DNA of 64,000 nucleotides from an uncultured Candidatus Saccharibacteria bacterium (lineage in GTDB: Bacteria > Patescibacteriota > Minisyncoccia > Phycocordibacterales > Phycocordibacteraceae): the NCBI GenBank assembly GCA_964357395.1, contig CAYHLC010000001.1, positions 119,599 through 183,598 of the forward strand, in the 5' to 3' direction. The position numbers and the translations under genes were made by a program. The notes below the pieces were generated by a model that saw only the letters and a program-made list of their open reading frames with translations, was not told the DNA's origin and searched no databases. Numbering within the stretch: the stretch's first letter is position 1; every line of letters starts with the position of its first letter. Shown in pieces: positions 4,071 through 57,566 of the stretch.

Positions 4071-4955
4071 ATGGCTACGCTCTACTCGCAAGCGGATAGC
4101 AATATACGTCGCACGTGGGTGTTGATGCTCACGTTCTTCATCGCGGTTGTCGGACTTGGGTGGGCGCTGTCCTTCGCGCTCGATAACCAGTTCATCCTCT
4201 ACGCTGCGGTCGGGCTCTCGTTGGTTATGAACGTCGGCTCGTACTGGTTTTCAGACAAGGTCGCCCTTAGCGCGAGTGGCGCCAAGCCCGCAGACGGACC
4301 AGAGTATGTAGAGCTCAACCGGATAGTAGAGAATCTTGCTATTACGGAAGGTATGCCAAAGCCGAATGTGTACATCATCAACGACCCCGCACCAAACGCG
4401 TTTGCTACCGGCCGGGACCCAAAGCATGGCGCTGTTGCAGTGACGACCGGCCTCCTCCGGATGATGGAGCGTTCAGAACTCGAGGGCGTACTTGCGCACG
4501 AACTCAGCCACATCAAGAATCGCGACACCCTGGTTATGACGGTGGTCGTCGTTCTTTTAGGAATCGTGACGCTCTTGTCGGATTTCTTCATCCGCTCACA
4601 AATGTTTGGTGGGGGAGACAGAGATAACAAGGCAGCTCCGTATCTAATGATCATCGGCATTGTGCTCGCGATACTCTCGCCAATCATTGCGCAGCTCATA
4701 CAACTCGCGATCTCTAGGCGGCGCGAGTTCCTCGCAGACGCCTCCGGCGCGCTTATGACTCGCTACCCAGAGGGCCTCGCGAGTGCTCTCACAAAAATAG
4801 GCGCCTACGCAGCGCCTATGCAGCGGGCCAACAATGCGACCGCGCACCTATTTATATCCAACCCCTTTGGCGCAGGCGCCATGAAGGGCATAGCCAAGTT
4901 CTTTATGACTCACCCTCCGGTAGAGGAGCGGGTTAGGGCTCTTCTCGGCAAGTGA
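4071..4955 (+). CDS. htpX: HtpX-like M48 zinc metalloprotease
   Basis: Track ORF; HELSHIKNRD (HExxH) plus polytopic membrane topology. Confidence 0.85.
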   Translation: MATLYSQADSNIRRTWVLMLTFFIAVVGLGWALSFALDNQFILYAAVGLSLVMNVGSYWFSDKVALSASGAKPADGPEYVELNRIVENLAITEGMPKPNVYIINDPAPNAFATGRDPKHGAVAVTTGLLRMMERSELEGVLAHELSHIKNRDTLVMTVVVVLLGIVTLLSDFFIRSQMFGGGDRDNKAAPYLMIIGIVLAILSPIIAQLIQLAISRRREFLADASGALMTRYPEGLASALTKIGAYAAPMQRANNATAHLFISNPFGAGAMKGIAKFFMTHPPVEERVRALLGK

Positions 4956-5794: not shown

Positions 5795-6808
5795 TTGTAT
5801 TATAGGGGCATGAATGGTGTAAACCCGCAGTACGTCATCGCCGGGATAGGCGTACTTATTATTATTGGTATCGCCGGCTATAGCGCGCTCGGCCCCTCAG
5901 CCGTCACTACTGACGAGCCGGTAGTTGCGGTGTCTGGCCCGGAGGGGACAGAGGAAGTGGCTACAGTACAGCCATCAGAGACAACTACTACTCCGAAACC
6001 TACGACACCAAAGCCAACTTCGCCAACACCAAACCCTTCGACCGGTGCGGGATCTCCAGCCGCACCTTCGACCCCAGCTGAAACGCCGGCAGCTCCACCA
6101 GAATCCACACCACCGGTAGCTCCGACAGCACCAACGGCTCCAGCGGCATACAACCCAGGCTTTCAAGCATCGACTCGCGTGCACCCTGGTATTCCGTCAG
6201 AAAACGAGCGTGCCACGCTGCCATCTTGCGATGGCAAAAAGTTTACTATCGACCCAGTCAATTTCGGTGCGGTAACGTCGATCACTGCAAATGGGAGCTT
6301 CAGCGGCGTCGCCCCGCATGAGTATGCAGTTATTCGACTCAACACCACTGGCACTGAGGCCATGTACGACCTTACCGCGCCACAGGACGTGTGGGTGACG
6401 TCTTTGGTGCAAGAGAGTGGACTCTCCGTCGACTCGAGCGATACCACCATTTACTTTGCGCTATGCAAAGATGTGATCGGCTACACTACGCACATCAAGG
6501 AACTCTCTACACAGACATACAAGATACTGACCGACTCATACTGCTTCGGCAAGCCGCATACGGGACCTAATGCCTGCAAGATCGAGATACTCCAACTGAT
6601 CGGTGGTGGCTCGTCGCTCGGCAAGGTAGGTAGGCTTGAGGGCGCCTTTGGGCTCGGCGTTATTGACCTTAGGACAGAGCGAGGCCTCATGAATCCAAGC
6701 GTATACTCGGTTATTACGAACTTTGCTCGCTGCCCCTTCAGCTACTTCACCAACGCAGAGGCGTTCAACAACAAGCTCACCGGCACTTCGGACCTGTGTG
6801 TGCAGTAG
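5795..6808 (+). CDS. hypothetical membrane-anchored protein with Pro/Thr-rich linker and Cys-containing C-terminal domain
   Basis: Track ORF; N-terminal TM (VIAGIGVLIIIGIAGY), ~90-aa PT-rich low-complexity linker, then globular domain with 6 Cys. No recognised family. Confidence 0.55.
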   Translation: MYYRGMNGVNPQYVIAGIGVLIIIGIAGYSALGPSAVTTDEPVVAVSGPEGTEEVATVQPSETTTTPKPTTPKPTSPTPNPSTGAGSPAAPSTPAETPAAPPESTPPVAPTAPTAPAAYNPGFQASTRVHPGIPSENERATLPSCDGKKFTIDPVNFGAVTSITANGSFSGVAPHEYAVIRLNTTGTEAMYDLTAPQDVWVTSLVQESGLSVDSSDTTIYFALCKDVIGYTTHIKELSTQTYKILTDSYCFGKPHTGPNACKIEILQLIGGGSSLGKVGRLEGAFGLGVIDLRTERGLMNPSVYSVITNFARCPFSYFTNAEAFNNKLTGTSDLCVQ

Positions 6809-6838
6809 CCTGCGAGCCCATTTCATGCTATAGTACTA

Positions 6839-7125
6839 GGAGCGTCAGGTAGTCGCTCTTTGAGAGAGGAAAGTCCGAACACACCCCCGCAAGGGGAGAA
6901 TCGTAGCGGGTAACCCCCGTCCAGTCCTCGGGCACGAGGCTGAGAGGTGCGAACAGAAACGATCCGGTTTAGTCCGGCTGAAACGGCAAAATCCTTACGT
7001 GTGTGCAAGGCCGTGCCCCACGAGCAATCGAGGGGAGTGCCGCAAAGATCCTGCTGGTAACAGTAGGGCAAGACAAATGGCTATCACCCGCAAGGGTACA
7101 GAATTCGGCTTATCGACGCGAAGTG
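6839..7125 (+). ncRNA. rnpB: RNase P RNA (bacterial type, minimal ~290 nt)
   Basis: Universally conserved P4 strands present: GAGGAAAGTCCG (6863-6874) and ACAGAATTCGGCTTATCG (7098-7115). P2 AGTCGC present, tiny P3 hairpin CTCTTTGAGAG. 5' GCGTC pairs 3' GACGC as P1. TATAGT -10 box at 6829-6834. Ends approximate. Confidence 0.75.
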
Positions 7126-7138
7126 CCCACAAGTGAGA

Positions 7139-7167
7139 ACACCCCTTATCGGGGGTGTTTTCTTTTT
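7139..7167 (+). terminator. rho-independent terminator after rnpB
   Basis: ACACCCC-TTATC-GGGGGTG followed by TTTTCTTTTT. Confidence 0.8.
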
Positions 7168-7205
7168 GGAGGGTATACTGGAGAGATACTAATAGTAAGT
7201 TATTT

Positions 7206-9479
7206 ATGGATACCACACGTTCGTTCCTATCCCTTTGGTCGTACCGCCTCTATATTGGGGCACTTTTCGTGCTGCCGTGGCTCGTTATTCCATCTTCAGT
7301 AGTCCCGTTTGCCTCATTCAAGATGGCACTCGCTGCCGGCCTTATTGGTCTCTCCGTCGTTCTTGCTATTGCAGCGGCGCTCTGGCGCGGCCAGATCAGC
7401 GTCCCATGGAGCATGCTCATGATCTCCGTGTGGGGAGTTGTGGGTGCGTATCTAGTCTCCACGCTGTTCGTACCGTCACCGATCAGCTCACTCATCGGTG
7501 CGGACCTCGCAGTCGACACGGTATTCTTTGTGGCACTCCTCGGTACAGCGCTCATGGTGCCGTTTTATGTCTTTGAGTCGCGGGCGGACTTCATGCGTGC
7601 GTTCTTTGTGGTTCTGGTTTCATCATGGGTCGTCGCTATTATCCACATACTCCGACTCCTTGTGGGGCCAGAGTTCCTCGCCTTCGGCGTGTACGGTTCG
7701 ACGCTCTTTTCGGTCCTCGGTAAGTGGAATGACCTTGGCCTCTTCTTTGGCCTCATCTCAGCACTCAGCCTCATTACGCTCGAAGCGCTGCCGCTCCAGG
7801 CAGTGTACGCCTGGGTTCTCCGCGTCTCTCTCGTAGTGTCGCTGTTCTTTGTTGCTCTCACTAACTTTATTCCAGTATGGGTGTTCCTTGGCCTCCTCGC
7901 GCTCGGCGTGGTGCTATACCGCGCGGTACTTGTTCGAGGTGCCGGAGGTGGCTTCTCACTCCCAGCTACAGCTGTCCTGCTCCTCGCCATCGTATGCACG
8001 CTCTTTACGGGTATCGGCACAGGCCTTTCGGCCGCAACCTCGACCGAGCAGATCGAGGCACGTCCGTCGCTCGGAGCAACGATGTCTGTCGTCAGCTCCG
8101 TACTGAACGAGAGCCCTCTGATCGGCTCTGGTCCCAATACCTTTATCTACGGCTGGGACAAGTATCGACCGCTGAGCCTCAATGGTTCCGTATTCTGGAA
8201 TGCGGACTTCAATGCTGGGGTCGGCTTTATCCCCACATCGCTCGCAACTGGTGGACTCCTCGCAGGAGCAGCATGGCTCCTCTTCATAGGCCTCTTTGTG
8301 ATTATGGGAGTGCGTGGACTACTCCTTGCACCACCAACCGACCCATCGACGTACTACCTCATGCTGGCCTCGTTCACTGCGGGACTCTACGTCCTCATTA
8401 TGGCGCTCCTCTACATTCCGAGCCCGGTCGTACTACTTATCGGCTTTGCAGCGATTGGTATGTGTGCAGCTTTGTACCACCGCGAACGCGGGGGTAGCGT
8501 GTGGACCATCGTGTTTGCCGAGCGCCCACGCCTTGGGTTTGTTGCAGTGCTCTCACTGACCATCAAGCTTATACTCGTCGTGCTGTTCCTCGCCGGAGTT
8601 GGCATGGCGTTCACCTCTGCTGTTGCATACGAGCGAGCATATGCCGCCGCACAAACTGCAGATACTCGAGGGGTCGCGATGGAGCATATCGCAGCAAGTA
8701 TTGCGGCAATGCCAACAGAGCGAGCACACCGCCTGGCGGTTGCTATCGAGCTCGCTCGACTCGACTCTGTAATCCAAGGCGCTTCCGGAGCTCCTTCGGA
8801 GACTGCACAAGCTGAGTTTCAGACCCGCCTTGGTTCCGCAGTAGAGCATGGACTTGCGGCAACAAATGGGGATGCTCGCGACTATCGAAACTGGCTCTCT
8901 CTCGGCAATGCGTACCACAGCGTTGTTGCGCTTAATGTCGATGGCGCCTATGAGTCAGCAAAAAACGCATACCAGCGTGCTGCAGAACTGAACCCGATAA
9001 TCCCTACAGTGCCGTACGCACAAGCTCAGCTCGAGATCTCACGTCAGCAGAGCGGAGCCTCGCGCCCGTTCCTCGAGTCAGCAATTAGCCTTAAGGCGGA
9101 CTTCGTCCCAGCTCTCGTGCTCCTCGCACAGCTCGAACTCGCAGAGGGGAACCTCCCGCAGGCAATCGAGCGCGCCGAGGCAGCCTCGGTTTTTGAGCCA
9201 ACAAACCCACTCCTGCAGTTCCAAACTGGTGTGCTGAAGTTCGAGCAGAAGGACTATGCGGGGGCCCGCACCGCGTTCGACGCTGCTCTAGAGCTCGCGC
9301 CTGACTACTCGAACGCTCGGTACTACCTCGGCCGGACACTCTTTGCTACTGCTGACGTGCCTGGCGCGATAGCAGCGTTCGAGGAGGTGCTACGTCTGAA
9401 CCCTGAGAACACGGAGGTCGCGGCAATTATTGAGTCGCTCAAAACCGGTGATGATCCGTTTGCCGCTCCAAAAGAGTAG
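7206..9479 (+). CDS. O-antigen ligase (Wzy_C)-like polytopic membrane protein with C-terminal TPR repeats
   Basis: Track ORF 7155..9479 trimmed to Met at 7206 (MDTTRSFLSL) because 7155 overlaps the rnpB terminator. ~12 TM helices then TPR-like repeats (AYQRAAELNP, AFDAALELAPDYSNARYYLG, AFEEVLRLNPEN). Confidence 0.7.
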   Translation: MDTTRSFLSLWSYRLYIGALFVLPWLVIPSSVVPFASFKMALAAGLIGLSVVLAIAAALWRGQISVPWSMLMISVWGVVGAYLVSTLFVPSPISSLIGADLAVDTVFFVALLGTALMVPFYVFESRADFMRAFFVVLVSSWVVAIIHILRLLVGPEFLAFGVYGSTLFSVLGKWNDLGLFFGLISALSLITLEALPLQAVYAWVLRVSLVVSLFFVALTNFIPVWVFLGLLALGVVLYRAVLVRGAGGGFSLPATAVLLLAIVCTLFTGIGTGLSAATSTEQIEARPSLGATMSVVSSVLNESPLIGSGPNTFIYGWDKYRPLSLNGSVFWNADFNAGVGFIPTSLATGGLLAGAAWLLFIGLFVIMGVRGLLLAPPTDPSTYYLMLASFTAGLYVLIMALLYIPSPVVLLIGFAAIGMCAALYHRERGGSVWTIVFAERPRLGFVAVLSLTIKLILVVLFLAGVGMAFTSAVAYERAYAAAQTADTRGVAMEHIAASIAAMPTERAHRLAVAIELARLDSVIQGASGAPSETAQAEFQTRLGSAVEHGLAATNGDARDYRNWLSLGNAYHSVVALNVDGAYESAKNAYQRAAELNPIIPTVPYAQAQLEISRQQSGASRPFLESAISLKADFVPALVLLAQLELAEGNLPQAIERAEAASVFEPTNPLLQFQTGVLKFEQKDYAGARTAFDAALELAPDYSNARYYLGRTLFATADVPGAIAAFEEVLRLNPENTEVAAIIESLKTGDDPFAAPKE

Positions 9480-26741: not shown

Positions 26742-26866
26742 GATAAGGAGCATTGTAACAAATCGTCTATGAAAATTGCCCCGAAGGGGCATTTTTCTGT
26801 GAGCGGCACCCTGCCGTGGCAGGTGCACTTGGATTTTCTAGAACGCTTCGCGTTAAGAAAAATCTC

Positions 26867-26955
26867 GGCGGAGAGGGAGGGATTCGAACCCTCGAAGAGG
26901 TTTCCCCCTTGCTGGTTTTCGAAACCAGTGCGTTCGACCACTCTGCCACCTCTCC
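26867..26955 (-). tRNA. tRNA-Ser (anticodon CGA), class II
   Basis: Reverse-complement fold: acceptor GGAGAGG/CCTCTCC, anticodon stem CTGGT/ACCAG, loop TTCGAAA, long variable arm, T-arm GAGGG-TTCGAAT-CCCTC. Confidence 0.85.
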
Positions 26956-27023
26956 AGGTTTTGCTCCGTGACGAACTGTTCGATTCTAGCATTTCGGGGC
27001 CAAAATGCTATATTTCCCACTGA

Positions 27024-27095
27024 GGCCCTATCGTCTAACGGTTAGGACACCAGCTTTTCAAGCTGAGAACCCGGGTTCGACTCCCGGTAGGGTCA
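27024..27095 (+). tRNA. tRNA-Glu (anticodon TTC)
   Basis: Acceptor GGCCCTA/TAGGGTC, D-arm GTCT-AACGGTTA-GGAC, anticodon loop TTTTCAA, T-arm CCGGG-TTCGACT-CCCGG. Confidence 0.8.
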
Positions 27096-27211
27096 TGCAG
27101 ACAAACCAATCCCATCGCGGTGGAATAATCATGCAAATACTGCCTGGCATTACCTCCCCTCATATAGTTGAGCTACTATTAAGAAAGAGGTTACCTTGGG
27201 TGATCTGTCGT

Positions 27212-27240
27212 TTGAGTGGCGTCCCTCAGCGACATATAAT
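27212..27240 (+). promoter_or_regulatory. canonical sigma70-type promoter TTGAGT-N17-TATAAT for the 801-aa island gene
   Basis: -35 27212-27217, -10 27235-27240, ATG at 27252 (near-leaderless). Confidence 0.55.
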
Positions 27241-27251
27241 GTACGCAGCAT

Positions 27252-29657
27252 ATGGATTTATCGCTCCTAAAGGTCAAGATAAAACAACTAATCGGAAAGG
27301 TCGGAACGATTCTTAAACTCAATGCCTTAAATAACAACAGGCTTGATATAGAGATAACAAAGGAAAAGATTGAGGCAAAGATAGAGGCTGACTCTATTAT
27401 TGGACAAATCGGCCAGCTTAATCAGACCCACACAGAAATTGGGAGTATTAGTGTGGTTTTACAGGGCGATCAGTTACCTGAAGATATTAAGCAGTTGCTT
27501 GGCGTTGCACAACCCGAAGCTCCACTTCTTCCGGCCTCTCCTGAATCAACAGGCGGTGACGTTCCAGTTCCAGGTAACGCAAGAGCAAAGAAGCTTAAGG
27601 TCTTGCTAGAGAATTTCGTTAGCGAGCATAATGAAGACCAAACCTTTCTTCTTGGAGTTGGACAACTCCTATTTTTTTACAGGCATCGCTCAAACATAGA
27701 TTTTTCTGAAGCAGAACTTATTTTGTTGCTTCGCTCTTCGCTCAAGCACGGCTTTCCTTTTTGGTACTGGTCGTTTCTTTATCGTGAAAAATTCAGTAAT
27801 GTAATTCCTCTAATAAAAGAGAGCTACAAAACGAATGACGTAAAGATCCGTATCGAACTAGTTCGTGTTCTAACAAGATTTACTGAAACTGCTGAGGAGC
27901 TATGTGCTCTTGCGGAAACAGAAAAGAATGAAGAGATTCTTGGCGCTATGGTTGCCGCATTGTTTGAGGGGAAAAACGAAGACCACGCGCAACGTGTTAT
28001 TTCCAATGCAATCTCCCGTCGGTTAGTACCTAGGGTTGAGCTCGATCGGATTAAGCTGCTTAGTGCGGAACTGGGCGCGAGTGAAAAAAGATTTCTAAGA
28101 CAGATTGTTATTGACGGATGGCCTGAGGAAAAAGTATTTGCGTTGAATTTGCTTAGCGTCTCTCCTTCGCCCGATGACCTTCATGTGATTGAAAATGTAA
28201 TTGATAATTTGCGATATCCGAAAGCTGTAGTTAGTGCACTACATTGTGTTTCTCGCATTGGCAGAACAGGCAAAATTGAAGTGATTAAAAAGCTGATAGA
28301 TGAGACAAGATCTGAAGAGATATTCATGCAGGCTTTGGAGGTACTTGCTCTACTTAAGGAAAAGAGCGCGTTCCCAGCCCTTTTTGACTTAGTAAAAAAA
28401 CCGGAAAGCGTTCATTGGCGGCTGACTGATTTAAATACTTGGACCTACGGCAGGAAGCTTGATGAAGCGGCCGTAGGCACATTTGATAAAAGTCATTACG
28501 AGTTGGTTGTAAAGGAGATTCTTTCAAAAAAGATTTGGGATGAAAACTGGGGCCTCTATGCATGGAGACCCCTGCACTTCCTTAAGTCTATAGAAGACCC
28601 CGAGGTGCGCTCTTTAATAGAGGTCGAAACCCGATTAAACGAAATGCCAGAATGGCGCGAAGTAGTTGAGGGTAGTAGGGGGGATCGAGAGATTGAGATA
28701 AGTGACGCTTCATCCTTGGTGGCTAAAGTTGGTACTTCAGATTTCGCTTTATCTGAACGATCCTTTAAGGCTTTATGGAAGCTCATTCCTTCATCAGAGG
28801 CTTTGGATTACCAAGAATATATTGAGAACTTGAGGATGGACCTGGCTGAAAGGTTAGTCGAGATTCGTAAGGATGAAACACTGCCACCTGAACAAAAAAA
28901 CTTATTGAAGAATGACTTGGACTACTTCCTTGGAGATAACACGCTTGCTTTTGGAGACCTGAGAACTGCTGGAAGTGTCTCACGTGGCAAAAAAAGGGAT
29001 GATGAAAAGAGTAAATTGGATAGACTGATAGAAGATATAAGTAAATTTGATTCTATTGAGAGCAGCTTCGTGGCTTTTGTTCTGACAAGCCAGAATCAGA
29101 GAACGTATGATTTCTTGATCACTCAGATCGGAAGACCTTTCGAGAAATTGTATTCCACTCTATCTGCGAAGTGGGGTGAGGTAGATAAGACACAGCTTAA
29201 ACCATTACTTGATAGCATAGTGAACAACAACCCCAACATCCTCATTAAATTGCGAGCTATTGAAGCGGGTTTAAGAATCGGAATATTTGACCGAGAGGAA
29301 GCACGGCTTACGGTTTTGGATGCACTTATGCCTGTTCGAGAGAAGCTCAAAAAGGAAGGTCGCGTGAATGAGAATAGCTTTATAACGCAGATTGCCTACA
29401 ACTCATGCATAAATACTTTGGCGGAAATTGGAAATCCAAATGATCTGCACTTCATTGAAGAGTCAGCTAACAGAGAACTAATAGTCTTTAGGAGCTACGC
29501 AAACTTTTCTGATATTCATAGCATTGAGGCGATTGAAAAGCTTCTAAATGTAATAGAGCTCACTACAGATGAAAAGGACATAAAATACGCACGTTTGGCC
29601 CTTGATAGTCTTGATTACAGATGGTCAGCAAAGGTGCTGGGGTTTGAGGCAAGTTAG
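27252..29657 (+). CDS. large alpha-helical HEAT/PBS-lyase-like repeat protein (801 aa) on an AT-rich island
   Basis: Track ORF; nucleotide composition ~40% GC versus ~58% flanks. HEAT-like repeat units (VSALHCVSRIGRTGKIEVIKKLID, QALEVLALLKEKSAFPALFDLV, CINTLAEIGNPNDLHFIEE, AIEAGLRIGIF). No enzymatic motif recognised. Confidence 0.7.
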   Translation: MDLSLLKVKIKQLIGKVGTILKLNALNNNRLDIEITKEKIEAKIEADSIIGQIGQLNQTHTEIGSISVVLQGDQLPEDIKQLLGVAQPEAPLLPASPESTGGDVPVPGNARAKKLKVLLENFVSEHNEDQTFLLGVGQLLFFYRHRSNIDFSEAELILLLRSSLKHGFPFWYWSFLYREKFSNVIPLIKESYKTNDVKIRIELVRVLTRFTETAEELCALAETEKNEEILGAMVAALFEGKNEDHAQRVISNAISRRLVPRVELDRIKLLSAELGASEKRFLRQIVIDGWPEEKVFALNLLSVSPSPDDLHVIENVIDNLRYPKAVVSALHCVSRIGRTGKIEVIKKLIDETRSEEIFMQALEVLALLKEKSAFPALFDLVKKPESVHWRLTDLNTWTYGRKLDEAAVGTFDKSHYELVVKEILSKKIWDENWGLYAWRPLHFLKSIEDPEVRSLIEVETRLNEMPEWREVVEGSRGDREIEISDASSLVAKVGTSDFALSERSFKALWKLIPSSEALDYQEYIENLRMDLAERLVEIRKDETLPPEQKNLLKNDLDYFLGDNTLAFGDLRTAGSVSRGKKRDDEKSKLDRLIEDISKFDSIESSFVAFVLTSQNQRTYDFLITQIGRPFEKLYSTLSAKWGEVDKTQLKPLLDSIVNNNPNILIKLRAIEAGLRIGIFDREEARLTVLDALMPVREKLKKEGRVNENSFITQIAYNSCINTLAEIGNPNDLHFIEESANRELIVFRSYANFSDIHSIEAIEKLLNVIELTTDEKDIKYARLALDSLDYRWSAKVLGFEAS

Positions 29658-29686
29658 TGGGGAATGGTGTCAGATACTATGTGTAA

Positions 29687-29980
29687 ATGAGAAGAGAGTT
29701 TCGCTTCAGTGCGAAGGTACAGGTATATCCAGGCCCGGGAGGGTGGAGGGTGGTGGCTTTGCCAAAGCTTGCGTCGGTGCGGATAGGGGCGCGGCGGGGG
29801 AGGAGGAAGAAGAGTTGGAACTTCTTTAATGTATCCACCACCATCGGCAAGACGACATGGACTAGCAGCCTCTGGCCGAAGCAGAAGGAGGGCGTGTATC
29901 TCATCGTCATCAAGAAGCCCGTACTAAAGAAGGAGGGGATTATGGACGGCGACAAGGTCAGCGTAACGATCACCTACTAG
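29687..29980 (+). CDS. DUF1905 domain protein
   Basis: YPGPGGWRVVALPK...TTIGKTTWTSSLWPKQKEGVYLIVIKKPVLKKEGIMDGDKVSVTI matches DUF1905. Confidence 0.75.
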   Translation: MRREFRFSAKVQVYPGPGGWRVVALPKLASVRIGARRGRRKKSWNFFNVSTTIGKTTWTSSLWPKQKEGVYLIVIKKPVLKKEGIMDGDKVSVTITY

Positions 29981-30000: not shown

Positions 30001-30162
30001 ATGGACAAAATAAAGATAGAGAATCATACGTTCGGCTTCGGAATCTGGGTTATCGGATGGCTCTTTACTATCGGATACCTCAAGCTCGCATTTTGGAACG
30101 GAGTACTCGCAGTTATCGTCTGGCCGTACTTCCTCGGCGTCTCGTTTAGTTCGGTACTGTGA
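30001..30162 (+). CDS. small two-TM membrane protein (53 aa), hypothetical
   Basis: Own translation: MDKIKIENHTFGFGIWVIGWLFTIGYLKLAFWNGVLAVIVWPYFLGVSFSSVL. Stop overlaps the GTG start of the next gene (ctGTGAag); ATG 6 nt after TACACT. Confidence 0.4.
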   Translation: MDKIKIENHTFGFGIWVIGWLFTIGYLKLAFWNGVLAVIVWPYFLGVSFSSVL

Positions 30163-30866
30163 AGCTGCTACTCACATCCAGCGGATTCATTGGGAGCACC
30201 TTGGAAAAGGACTTTTGGGAGCTCGTCGGCGACCGCAAGAACCTAAAGGTGGCAATCATTCCTAATGCTACCGATCCTATTGAGTGGGTTGCCGAAAAGG
30301 AGGGCGACCCGGTAAGTGCATATGTAGCGAGGCTGACACGCGGAAATGATGTGAACTATGGAAAAGGGAAGGACTATGACTACTTCAAAAGCAAAGGCTG
30401 CGAGGTGGTCATTGTCGACCTGAAGGAGGATTCCGCAGAGGTGAGGAGAAAGCTCGAGAGTGTCGACATAATCGATGTGTGGGGAGGCGACGGTAACTGG
30501 CTACTCGATTGGGCAAAGAACGCGAAGTTGGACACGTACCTCAAAGAGATATTGGACAAGGGTGTGGTGTATGTCGGCGCGAGCGCGGGGAGTTGTCTAC
30601 TCACGCCAGACATTGGCCTCGGTTGGTGGACTCCGGAATGGAAATCGGATCATATAGGACTAGGAGTCGTTGATTTTACAATCGCCCCTCATCAAAAGGA
30701 AAGTGAGCTGGCAGAGAAAGTGCAAAAATATACCGAGCAGAGAAAGCAACTGCAGACAATAATCGATTTTCCTTGGAAGATATATCTACTCCAGGACGAC
30801 CAAGCGATTAAGGTTGATGGCGATACAGTTGAGCATATTGGGGAAGGGGAACGAAGGTCGATCTAA
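30159..30866 (+). CDS. peptidase S51 / class-I glutamine amidotransferase-like (dipeptidase E-like)
   Basis: Track ORF (GTG start); VAIIPNATDP, GASAGSCLL nucleophile elbow, His downstream. Confidence 0.7.
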   Translation: MKLLLTSSGFIGSTLEKDFWELVGDRKNLKVAIIPNATDPIEWVAEKEGDPVSAYVARLTRGNDVNYGKGKDYDYFKSKGCEVVIVDLKEDSAEVRRKLESVDIIDVWGGDGNWLLDWAKNAKLDTYLKEILDKGVVYVGASAGSCLLTPDIGLGWWTPEWKSDHIGLGVVDFTIAPHQKESELAEKVQKYTEQRKQLQTIIDFPWKIYLLQDDQAIKVDGDTVEHIGEGERRSI

Positions 30867-41882: not shown

Positions 41883-42500
41883 CTATTTAGGGCTCTTATC
41901 GTCGCGGTGCCGTAGCTCCCGTCCCCAGATATCCTCCTCCAAATCCAGAACATCGAAATAGCCATCGGCGCCGGTCCGCAGCTCCTGCGAGACATTGTTC
42001 TTAGAGGAGAAAATATACACCTTCTTGCTGTTATTTCTTAGATAAGCTACTAGAGCAAGAAAGTCAGAGTCGCCTGTAAACAGGACAGCAGTTTCATACT
42101 TAGATCTAAAGTGCATCGCGTCGATTGTCATTTCGACATCCATGTTCCCTTTTTCTTCTACTGACTCACCGTGCTCGTTCGTCACTGTAATCCGCTTCAA
42201 CTCCTTCTTCCTGACGGTAAACTTTAACCCCTTTTTGAGGTATGTGTAGAATTTATGCTTCCCTTCAGTACTGTACGATCTGGTGCCCTCGGCCGGATAG
42301 GCAGTATAGTACAGAACGTGCATCTCGGTTCCAGAGAACTTGGCCTTTATGAAAGCGGTGAGTTTTGCATAGTCTAAGAATCTACCTTTTGCCTTCTGTG
42401 CAGCCCAAAGGTTGGAGGCATCTATGAAGACATCAATCCTGTTTGCCACCGACCCACTATACTCCTCAGTAAGATGACTGAACAACTGACCCCCGTTCAA
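41883..42500 (-). CDS. NYN-domain (LabA/PIN-like) putative RNase
   Basis: IDVFIDASNLW..., YYTAY, and D-rich NYN motifs; gene body noticeably AT-richer (~45% GC) than flanks. Confidence 0.75.
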   Translation of the reverse strand: MNGGQLFSHLTEEYSGSVANRIDVFIDASNLWAAQKAKGRFLDYAKLTAFIKAKFSGTEMHVLYYTAYPAEGTRSYSTEGKHKFYTYLKKGLKFTVRKKELKRITVTNEHGESVEEKGNMDVEMTIDAMHFRSKYETAVLFTGDSDFLALVAYLRNNSKKVYIFSSKNNVSQELRTGADGYFDVLDLEEDIWGRELRHRDDKSPK

Positions 42501-56593: not shown

Positions 56594-56677
56594 GGGCGAG
56601 TGGTGAAATTGGCAGACACGCCAGCCTTAGGAGCTGGTCCTCGCAAGAGGGTGGAGGTTCAAGTCCTCTCTCGCCCA
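56594..56677 (+). tRNA. tRNA-Leu (anticodon TAG), class II
   Basis: Acceptor GGGCGAG/CTCGCCC, anticodon stem CCAGC/GCTGG, loop CTTAGGA, long variable arm TCCTCGCAAGAGGGT, T-arm GGAGG-TTCAAGT-CCTCT. Confidence 0.9.
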
Positions 56678-56684
56678 CAGAATA

Positions 56685-56705
56685 AGGCCCAACTGGGCCT
56701 TTGTT
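56685..56705 (+). terminator. rho-independent terminator after tRNA-Leu
   Basis: AGGCCC-AACT-GGGCCT then TTGTT. Confidence 0.7.
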
Positions 56706-56769
56706 CATAGGTGCATAAAGTGCTTGCGGTGCCTCCTTGCCGGGTGTAGGATAGGCAGATACCACGTGC

Positions 56770-56798
56770 TTGACTATACTAGAACAGCATGGTATAAT
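56770..56798 (+). promoter_or_regulatory. promoter TTGACT-N17-TATAAT, start codon 6 nt downstream
   Basis: Canonical hexamers and spacing; ATG at 56805. Confidence 0.55.
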
Positions 56799-56804
56799 GC
56801 AAAT

Positions 56805-56993
56805 ATGTGTGGATACTTCATACACCCTGAGGAGGGTTTCACCCTAAAAGGGGGTCTTACTATTTTTGGCGCCGTTTTCTTGTTAGGGTGTATAGCTACG
56901 TACGTCCTTGTCGATAAGGATACTGTACCAAGCAAGTTGATCCTTGAAATTTTGGGCGGATCTTCCTCTAATGGGCCTACCTACGAAACCTAA
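56805..56993 (+). CDS. small TM protein (62 aa), hypothetical
   Basis: MCGYFIHPEEGFTLKGGLTIFGAVFLLGCIATYVLV...; lies in an AT-rich segment. Confidence 0.4.
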   Translation: MCGYFIHPEEGFTLKGGLTIFGAVFLLGCIATYVLVDKDTVPSKLILEILGGSSSNGPTYET

Positions 56994-57490
56994 CGAAATT
57001 ATATGGCAAGAGAGGATTCATACCGCCCCACACGAACTGAGTTTATCCTAATTGCAGCTATTCTCTTGTTGGTAGTTGCGGGTATCAATATTGCGCCAGG
57101 GGAAGGCGCGGCAATCGATGCGTCGGAAGGTAAGTTTACTCCAAAGAGCAATCCTGATTTATACCCTAATTAAATTGTGTGGCATTTGAAGGAGACCAAC
57201 ACAAGCCAGAGCCTAATTATCTCCTCAGAGGCGCGCTATTCATTTTTGCAGCTGTCTCGATATTTATAATGCTCGGCATATCCGGTCCTTCGGGCATTGA
57301 GCTTGAGTGAGAGCATACATCCTGCAGAAGCGGGGTTTTTGTTTTGAGGCCTTTAATTAATCTGTATATCTGTTAGTATTCTGACTGTCCCCGATGAGGG
57401 GGCGGAGTGAACTACTCGCGCCCATAAGCGAAGCTTTTGGGCGCTGCACTCGGACGCCATGAGTGCAAGCACTCGCGGCGTCACTCGTTT

Positions 57491-57566
57491 GCGCCCATAG
57501 CTCAGCTGGTAGAGCAACCGACTCTTAATCGGCAGGTCCTTGGTTCGAATCCAAGTGGGCGCACCA
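57491..57566 (+). tRNA. tRNA-Lys (anticodon CTT), CCA encoded
   Basis: Acceptor GCGCCCA/TGGGCGC, D-arm GCTC-AGCTGGTA-GAGC, anticodon loop CTCTTAA, T-loop TTCGAAT. Confidence 0.9.

Follow-up and report, generated by a model that had tools for sequence, protein, structure and literature searches.

A single large gene in the genome of an uncultured Candidatus Saccharibacteria bacterium stands beside two tRNA genes and differs in composition from everything around it. We analyzed it within a stretch of 64,000 nucleotides (positions 119,599 to 183,598 of contig CAYHLC010000001.1), which we call the window and whose own numbering we use throughout. The gene (27252-29657, plus strand) encodes a protein of 801 amino acids (aa), most of it one long solenoid of HEAT-type helical repeats, and it is entered at NCBI as AAB955_02080, a hypothetical protein of a Patescibacteria group bacterium. 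Two questions concern us: how did this gene come to lie next to a tRNA, and what might its product do? Our answers differ in firmness. The segment 27096-29686 is very probably of mobile-element origin; that the HEAT protein has a role in conflict or defense is a candidate explanation whose chances of being right we consider about equal to its chances of being wrong.

The locus and its composition

The features of the locus, with those encoded inside the HEAT gene, are as follows (nt, nucleotides; ORF, open reading frame; GC3, GC content at third codon positions; AF2, AlphaFold2).

26867-26955, minus strand: tRNA-Ser(cga), found by ARAGORN and by the Rfam tRNA model (55.5 bits); a host gene on the left side of the junction
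27024-27095, plus strand: tRNA-Glu(ttc), found by ARAGORN and Rfam; bounds the foreign segment on its left and shares its strand with the HEAT gene
27096-27251, plus strand: spacer of 156 nt from tRNA-Glu to the ATG; GC falls here; contains a promoter-like site and no recombinase remnant (tblastn)
27212-27240, plus strand: sigma-70-like promoter match TTGAGT-N17-TATAAT, 10/12 positions, with the -35 box at 27212-27217 and the -10 box at 27235-27240
27252-29657, plus strand: ORF of the HEAT-solenoid protein, 801 aa
27252-27461, plus strand: N-terminal module, aa 1-70; conserved in the family, rich in Ile, Leu, and Lys, with no confident AF2 structure
27462-27581, plus strand: linker, aa 71-110; variable, rich in Pro (17%), Gly, and Gln
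27582-27944, plus strand: "head" of the solenoid, aa 111-231; signature SSLKxxFPxWFWxFxYREKF
27582-29639, plus strand: all-alpha solenoid, aa 111-796; about 40 helices in a generic HEAT/ARM fold
28236-28403, plus strand: HEAT_2 repeat, aa 329-384; the sole repeat detectable with Pfam, below the gathering score
29658-29686, plus strand: right boundary; GC back at host level
29687-29980: DUF1905 gene, next downstream; GC3 76%, host-like

The initial annotation, made by reading the sequence without database searches, had described an AT-rich island of about 40% GC with sharp edges, beginning 155 nt after tRNA-Glu, and the sliding GC and tetranucleotide analysis that it proposed bears out nearly all of this. 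The ORF has a GC content of 42.0% vs. 54.8% in the rest of the window; it is the lowest-GC of all 2.4-kb intervals within the 64 kb (-4.7 SDs) and also the largest tetranucleotide outlier (+5.7 SDs), and the GC profile flips within about 200 nt of either end of the ORF. Only the flanks had been set too high, at about 58% GC, where we measure 53-55%. The third codon positions are foreign as well, with a GC3 of 40% vs. 51-76% across nine neighboring genes, and therefore, the shift in composition is not a by-product of amino acid content.

The gene is intact, it retains all of the near-invariant residues seen in the family alignment, and homologues back its start codon, since the first ~25 residues are conserved among them. 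Around the locus, an Rfam scan reports the two tRNAs only. A match to sX4, a proteobacterial small RNA (26806-26969, minus strand), reaches 42.6 bits where the gathering score is 70, overlaps tRNA-Ser, and is most likely a tRNA artifact.

The promoter had been called a textbook example. The string TTGAGT-N17-TATAAT is indeed present, but sites of this kind are statistically unexceptional here, with 4 found in the region vs. 4.9 expected from shuffled sequence. Between the end of the -10 box and the ATG lie 11 nt, and a Shine-Dalgarno sequence is lacking; the predicted mRNA, with its start around 27246-27249, would therefore be near-leaderless. AT-rich boxes resembling a -10 element, within about 15 nt of the ATG and with no Shine-Dalgarno sequence, are seen in the window (27235-27254) and in the regions upstream of the HEAT genes at L005, L006, L009, L011, and L014 (loci of relatives carry our own L numbers and their proteins P numbers); on sequence grounds, leaderless expression of the HEAT family is suggested.

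Architecture of the protein

What kind of protein is this? An AF2 model built from an alignment of 18 sequences (pLDDT 80.4, pTM 0.70; a model from 2 sequences, with pLDDT 49, was discarded) folds aa 110-796 into one unbroken solenoid of ~690 aa made of helices only and leaves aa 1-108 without confident structure, disordered in the model. The description of the product as entirely alpha-helical thus holds for aa 110-796 but not for the first ~65 residues, the periodicity of which is of the i/i+2 amphipathic beta type and not helical (in the window protein, a beta moment of 0.50 vs. an alpha moment of 0.26). Across the family, N-terminal stretches are beta-dominant in 70% of the intervals scored vs. 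49% in the solenoid, and the same N-terminal part carries the conserved motifs M..FSFFK.xIxK.., VDVEIxK, and QIxEQxN..I.I.G. The N-terminal region measures about 108 aa instead of the ~130 aa first estimated, and the Pro-rich linker within it was correctly recognized.

The repeats had been described as HEAT/PBS-lyase-like, and here too, one half of the description stands. They are HEAT by fold, with one subthreshold HEAT_2 repeat by sequence (PF13646; 24.6 bits, E 3e-5, under the 27.7-bit gathering score); HEAT_2 is matched at E<=0.01 in 12 of 18 family members, and P0002, the HEAT protein of locus L002, scores 37.5 bits. For the PBS-lyase half, HEAT_PBS (PF03130) has no match in the window protein at E<=1 and none in the 18 relatives at E<=0.01. 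When the model is compared with the Protein Data Bank (PDB) by Foldseek, as had been recommended, only generic HEAT/ARM proteins come back, the top matches being SF3B1, the A subunit of PP2A, karyopherins, and CAND1 (template modeling score ~0.2, 10-14% identity, E 5e-5 to 1e-3). Alike in their solenoids of alpha-alpha hairpins, these are eukaryotic housekeeping scaffolds, unlike the window protein, and at such scores and identities, they have no specific kinship with it. In a viral structure library, no structural match to the solenoid is found at E<=0.001.

No catalytic domain is seen in the window protein by Pfam, NCBIfam, PADLOC, PHROGs, or PDB sequence profiles, in agreement with what had been concluded by eye: PADLOC-DB v2 gives 0 families at E<=1, NCBIfam gives nothing, and the PHROGs and PDB profiles give insignificant matches only (E>=0.17). 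A nucleoside triphosphatase (NTPase) is likewise absent from the Pfam, NCBIfam, and PADLOC results, and the family alignment holds no conserved Walker motif.

A sparse family

An exhaustive HMMER search of 1.84 billion protein representatives yields 23 matches, 18 of them at E<1e-30, which amounts to a family of about 20 clusters at 50% identity. Nearly all members have 760-800 aa and share 29-42% identity with the window protein. A word-indexed protein search returned the window protein itself and one relative only, and with profiles A2 and A4, it missed even known members of the family. The family is absent from IMG/VR (queried with two single proteins and a 7-sequence profile), tblastn finds no match to it in GenBank phages or PLSDB plasmids, and Pfam, NCBIfam, PADLOC, and PHROGs contain no family-specific model. 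The survey of homologues that had been called for thus shows a family that is very sparse and patchy, with no synteny among its loci. Neither the libraries nor the literature that we searched describe the family or the elements that carry it; the general kind to which it belongs, that of foreign cargo genes next to a tRNA in a defense-island setting, is already familiar.

Carriers of the relatives

Where, then, do the relatives live? Ten distinct HEAT loci of relatives were examined. Nine loci, with the window counted among them, have at least 3 kb of upstream sequence and so are informative about a recombinase. In seven of these nine (L002, L005, L006, L008, L011, L013, and L014), a large serine recombinase lies upstream of the HEAT gene, divergently oriented and 1.2-4.9 kb away; the window is one of the two exceptions. 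The recombinases consist of Resolvase and Recombinase domains with or without a Zn-ribbon, and they are homologous to each other. Their hosts are uncultivated and mostly of low GC, and the homologues, like the window gene, also form AT-rich islands, in hosts of 48% and ~60% GC. The gene caller overlooked the recombinase of L005 (3261-4808, minus strand, 515 aa, 61% identical to its L006 counterpart) and lists an overlapping bPH_2 ORF in its place; tblastn recovered it.

In two of these loci, the recombinase ORF runs with its 3' end into an RNA gene, tRNA-Asn in L002 and the transfer-messenger RNA (tmRNA) gene in L011. In both elements the RNA gene has the same position, and the HEAT gene the same orientation relative to it, as in the window. 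A composite of L002 and L001 lets us see both ends of one carrier: a 19-nt imperfect direct repeat, GGAGCCAG[A/C]AACCAC[A/C]TCA, brackets an AT-rich element of ~9.9 kb (z ~5), with one copy at L002 476-495, the 3' end of tRNA-Asn, and the other at L001 ~4103-4122, where GC jumps after the 318-aa gene that follows the HEAT gene. GC climbs from 36% to 48% at this right end. The two repeats are probably the attL and attR of a ~9.9-kb element that carries the Septu defense system together with the HEAT gene. For the tmRNA 3' end in L011, the best repeat match does not rise above shuffles.

Is the HEAT gene a core part of these elements or something that they carry? Pairwise divergences of recombinase and HEAT protein are uncorrelated (Spearman -0.24, n=20), by which codivergence of the two is ruled out, and the genes downstream of HEAT show no homology to one another across loci, by which a conserved downstream partner is ruled out as well. 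Therefore, we regard the HEAT gene as exchangeable cargo and not as a core gene that diverges along with its recombinase.

Recognized defense genes are part of the company that the gene keeps, and the suggestion that it might be a defense factor gains support by this association. Next to homologues we find Septu (PtuA, 1e-161; PtuB, 2e-57) in the L002/L001 element; a type I restriction-modification system, YgjP, and a protein with a FokI cleavage domain in L012, where the FokI-type gene lies 5 nt upstream of HEAT; a pP_pnuc_1/Aga_Nuclease-like gene, for a pPIWI-type nuclease, 11 nt upstream of HEAT in L013; and DUF4238-Pers (1.5e-11) 35 nt downstream of HEAT in L014. A small HTH_17 gene lies directly upstream of HEAT in two loci and overlaps the HEAT start in L015.

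Among the defense neighbors we also count a pair of genes conserved between two of the loci, one MazG-like and one HNH (L011 13200-14512, minus strand; L015 6692-8054, plus strand), with identities of 50% and 33%; the pair may be a two-gene module that travels with HEAT elements.

The window copy as a probable stranded element

If the relatives ride on recombinase elements, what remains of such an element in the window? A tblastn search with six serine recombinases finds no recombinase in the 64 kb, nor are there homologues in the window of the 65-aa and 318-aa proteins that accompany P0002 or any partner gene of foreign composition. The flanks of the window have no sequence similarity to the flanks of the other loci. 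The att-like repeat of the tRNA-Glu 3' end, which the initial annotation had proposed to look for, does not appear above shuffle level; the test is a weak one, for the recombinases that accompany the family are of the serine type and can do without long repeats. An empty site did not turn up: matches to the peptidase S51 gene in other Patescibacteria are nonsyntenic, and metagenome contigs yielded no match either to the 677-aa protein of the flank or to the exact sequence of tRNA-Glu. The window copy lacks the recombinase that most relatives carry, and we therefore take it to be an orphaned fragment of an element, not a complete island.

Horizontal acquisition, as first proposed, is supported by the foreign overall composition and GC3, by the sparseness of the family, and by relatives that lie in AT-rich islands on recombinase elements abutting tRNA-Asn or tmRNA. 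With tRNA- and tmRNA-targeting elements that bear defense "morons" and with serine-recombinase defense islands, our locus and its relatives share the foreign composition, the position beside a tRNA, a promoter of their own, a variable set of defense genes, and in the relatives, a nearby recombinase. Defenses mobilized by serine recombinases include those linked to SCCmec (PMC11470126), and small serine recombinases have been used as defense markers (PMC13552941). The window differs from such islands in lacking the recombinase and all other element genes, and the recombinases of its relatives are of the large type.

A further proposal, that the HEAT protein regulates the adjacent DUF1905 and S51 genes, finds no footing: no homologue is linked to S51, and DUF1905 recurs near L005 only, in another orientation and in DNA of host GC.

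Other sequences in the window deserve a word. The peptidase S51 gene (30159-30866) has homologues of 74% and 58% identity in metagenome-assembled genomes of a Zambryskibacteria and a Gracilibacteria member, where they sit directly downstream of different tRNAs (Tyr and Leu; L016 1479-2344 and L017 2944-3850) with no other synteny, and it may itself be a tRNA-linked mobile gene. Between tRNA-Leu (56594-56678) and tRNA-Lys (57491-57566), the stretch 56700-57400 has 45% GC and short hydrophobic ORFs only; a further small insertion beside a tRNA may be what we see there. A second AT-rich patch, of ~46% GC, contains an ORF of 205 aa (41883-42500, minus strand) with NYN/LabA-like motifs (DASNL...TGDSDF).

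Links to STAND and amyloid-signaling systems

One sequence relationship of the HEAT protein comes from a weak family match, P0021, which by Pfam is a protein of HD-CE, nSTAND1, and HEAT_2 domains. The stretch that follows its NTPase directly, residues 630-750, aligns to aa 111-231 of the window protein, the WFW of the signature included (hhalign probability 97%, E 7e-11). By this homology of the head, the window protein resembles the sensor part of a STAND protein minus the NTPase and the effector. The nSTAND1 type (Pfam PF20703) belongs to STAND/NLR-like conflict proteins (Kaur et al., eLife 2021, PMC8195603), and in common with it, our protein has a C-terminal HEAT-type solenoid, the homologous post-NTPase segment, and the logic of a repeat-array sensor joined to an N-terminal output module. 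The window protein differs in lacking both a P-loop NTPase and an enzymatic effector, be it HD or another; in their place stands a nonenzymatic N-terminus of ~108 aa.

L002 offers a variation on this design. There, the HEAT protein (P0002) has no N-terminal module, and a gene upstream of the HEAT gene, overlapping it, specifies a protein of 65 aa that has a strong transmembrane helix (membrane protein, 6787-6984; HEAT gene, 6981-9260). The C-terminus of the membrane protein, QKTGDNSTAIQSGRDSNI, and the N-terminus of the HEAT protein, QETGEGSLAAQAGRDVNL, match in an 18-aa motif with an alignment score of 54; shuffled sequences score 22.7 +/- 3.9, and none of 5000 attains 54.

Such a layout has a precedent. 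In bacterial amyloid signaling, known from Bell/NLR BASS pairs (bioRxiv 10.1101/2020.01.06.895854), the Bab/Agp pair (BASS11) of Escherichia coli has been shown experimentally to act in abortive infection (bioRxiv 10.1101/2024.11.07.622273). Its receptor, like ours, is a big alpha-solenoid without the NLR NTPase (a TPR domain in Agp), and it, too, is found in defense islands on mobile elements. The N-terminal motif of that receptor is repeated at the C-terminus of a small neighbor with an N-terminal hydrophobic helix, and L002 reproduces this layout. The window protein departs from it in having no partner gene, in carrying its N-terminal module fused, in resembling neither the L002 motif nor BASS11, and in lacking any GreA/B-C, PIN, Bell, or Babybell domain. 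The fused N-termini have no detectable similarity to the L002 motif, and therefore, the analogy with amyloid signaling is documented for one locus only—a lead, not a membership. What the fused module does show is the beta-type amphipathic periodicity of aa 1-65.

Discussion

We can now say how we imagine the locus to have arisen and the protein to work. Small integrative elements of ~8-10 kb, equipped with a large serine recombinase, would insert at the 3' ends of tRNA and tmRNA genes and bring the HEAT gene with them as cargo. One such element would have inserted at tRNA-Glu; the part proximal to the recombinase would later have been deleted, and the outward-facing HEAT gene, with a promoter of its own, would have been left beside the tRNA. 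The HEAT protein, we propose, would be a single-gene, NTPase-less conflict protein directed against phages or other mobile genetic elements. Its solenoid would serve as the sensor that binds a protein of the invader, binding would release or cluster the N-terminal module, and the module would then self-associate and either kill or arrest the cell directly or recruit other factors. The near-invariant residues have been kept at a locus with no recombinase, from which we argue that the function of the protein is independent of mobility.

These statements should not be read as equally secure. For a role in conflict or defense, the arguments are the neighborhoods, the modular architecture, the homology to a STAND sensor, the split variant, and an intact copy that has outlived the mobility genes. 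The specific mechanism of N-terminal self-association is doubtful, something that we offer as a guess at how the parts might fit. The most ambitious formulation—a new minimal, NTPase-less, "NLR-like" abortive-infection protein, in which a STAND-derived HEAT sensor is joined to a beta-forming (amyloid-like) module, fused or split onto a membrane protein, and spread among ultrasmall Patescibacteria by large-serine-recombinase elements that target tRNA and tmRNA genes—is a long shot.

Several observations weigh against a mobile defense factor. For the window itself, neither a recombinase nor an att repeat came to light, nor an empty site in a relative, so the deleted element is something that we infer. 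The association with defense genes comes from ~10 loci and is a raw count, with no background rate beside it. The homology of the head spans ~120 residues only and involves one STAND protein. At its N-terminus, the window protein lacks both a transmembrane segment and any known effector domain, and neither the L002 membrane protein nor the P0002 motif has detectable similarity to the fused N-terminus when tried as its homologue. The window protein matches no PADLOC, PHROG, or NCBIfam model, and its promoter is no better than chance in the shuffle comparison. Finally, the tight linkage to recombinases could mean that the HEAT gene serves the element.

That last possibility leads to an alternative that we consider unlikely, namely that the HEAT protein serves the element as a core or maintenance factor (for directionality or excision, or as a scaffold for host takeover or stabilization) and that the window copy is a relic that has not yet decayed. 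The HEAT gene is, after all, the sole gene besides the recombinase that the elements have in common, at seven of the nine informative loci and always divergent from it; the HTH_17 genes just upstream in two loci are excisionase/AlpA-like; and variable defense genes lie between and beyond recombinase and HEAT, as in hotspots flanked by core genes. It is difficult to reconcile such a part with intact copies in the window, where 64 kb hold no recombinase, and in L012, where none was called in 9 kb upstream, or with the uncorrelated divergences, the lack of any DNA-binding, NTPase, or recombinase-related domain, and a head homologous to that of a STAND conflict protein. Somewhat less probable to us is that the solenoid is the specificity or adaptor subunit of a separately encoded neighboring effector, which it would activate, the window copy being partnerless and hence inactive or else dependent on a host factor. 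Genes of nuclease type do lie 5-36 nt from HEAT in three loci (the FokI-domain gene of L012, pP_pnuc_1 in L013, and DUF4238 in L014), the gene for the small membrane protein of L002 runs into the HEAT start, the two proteins have a motif in common, and the HEAT protein has no enzymatic domain of its own. No partner family is conserved, however: the downstream genes are unrelated, the upstream neighbor also varies, nearly all members keep the N-terminal module whatever the neighbor, and the window contains no partner gene of foreign composition.

Two other readings fare worse. If it were a large scaffold that ties up an immune or housekeeping protein of the host while the element establishes itself, the protein would be an anti-defense factor, and an all-alpha binding scaffold with no enzymatic domain, carried on mobile elements with its own promoter near the element end, could be imagined in that part. 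We find this hard to credit for a gene that has been kept intact in a streamlined host genome after the mobility genes were lost, that has defense genes and not known anti-defense genes as neighbors, and whose product has a homologue in the sensor part of a STAND protein; known anti-defense proteins, moreover, are usually small. Least of all do we believe in an ordinary, vertically inherited host scaffold whose low GC reflects amino acid or mutational bias and whose place beside a tRNA is coincidence. In its favor, no integrase, att repeat, or empty site could be demonstrated for the window, which contains 11 tRNA genes in 64 kb, so adjacency to a tRNA alone is weak evidence. Such a host gene would still have to account for a GC3 of 40% vs. 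51-76%, which is independent of amino acid content, for ~20 clusters worldwide with no synteny, and for homologues that ride on recombinase elements in hosts whose GC differs widely, and this makes it very nearly untenable.

Why should one lonely gene matter? Patescibacteria have tiny genomes in which few defense systems or mobile elements have been recognized, and the present analysis defines both a compact, unannotated gene family and a type of carrier: elements with a large serine recombinase, which target tRNA and tmRNA genes and bring a variable cargo of defense genes. If the HEAT protein is a defense factor, then a sensor solenoid of the NLR type would work without an NTPase switch, and signaling by amyloid-like or other self-association would extend past the few cases now known. 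Even if our functional guess is wrong, the HEAT family is a useful marker for defense hotspots and integrative elements in uncultivated bacteria.

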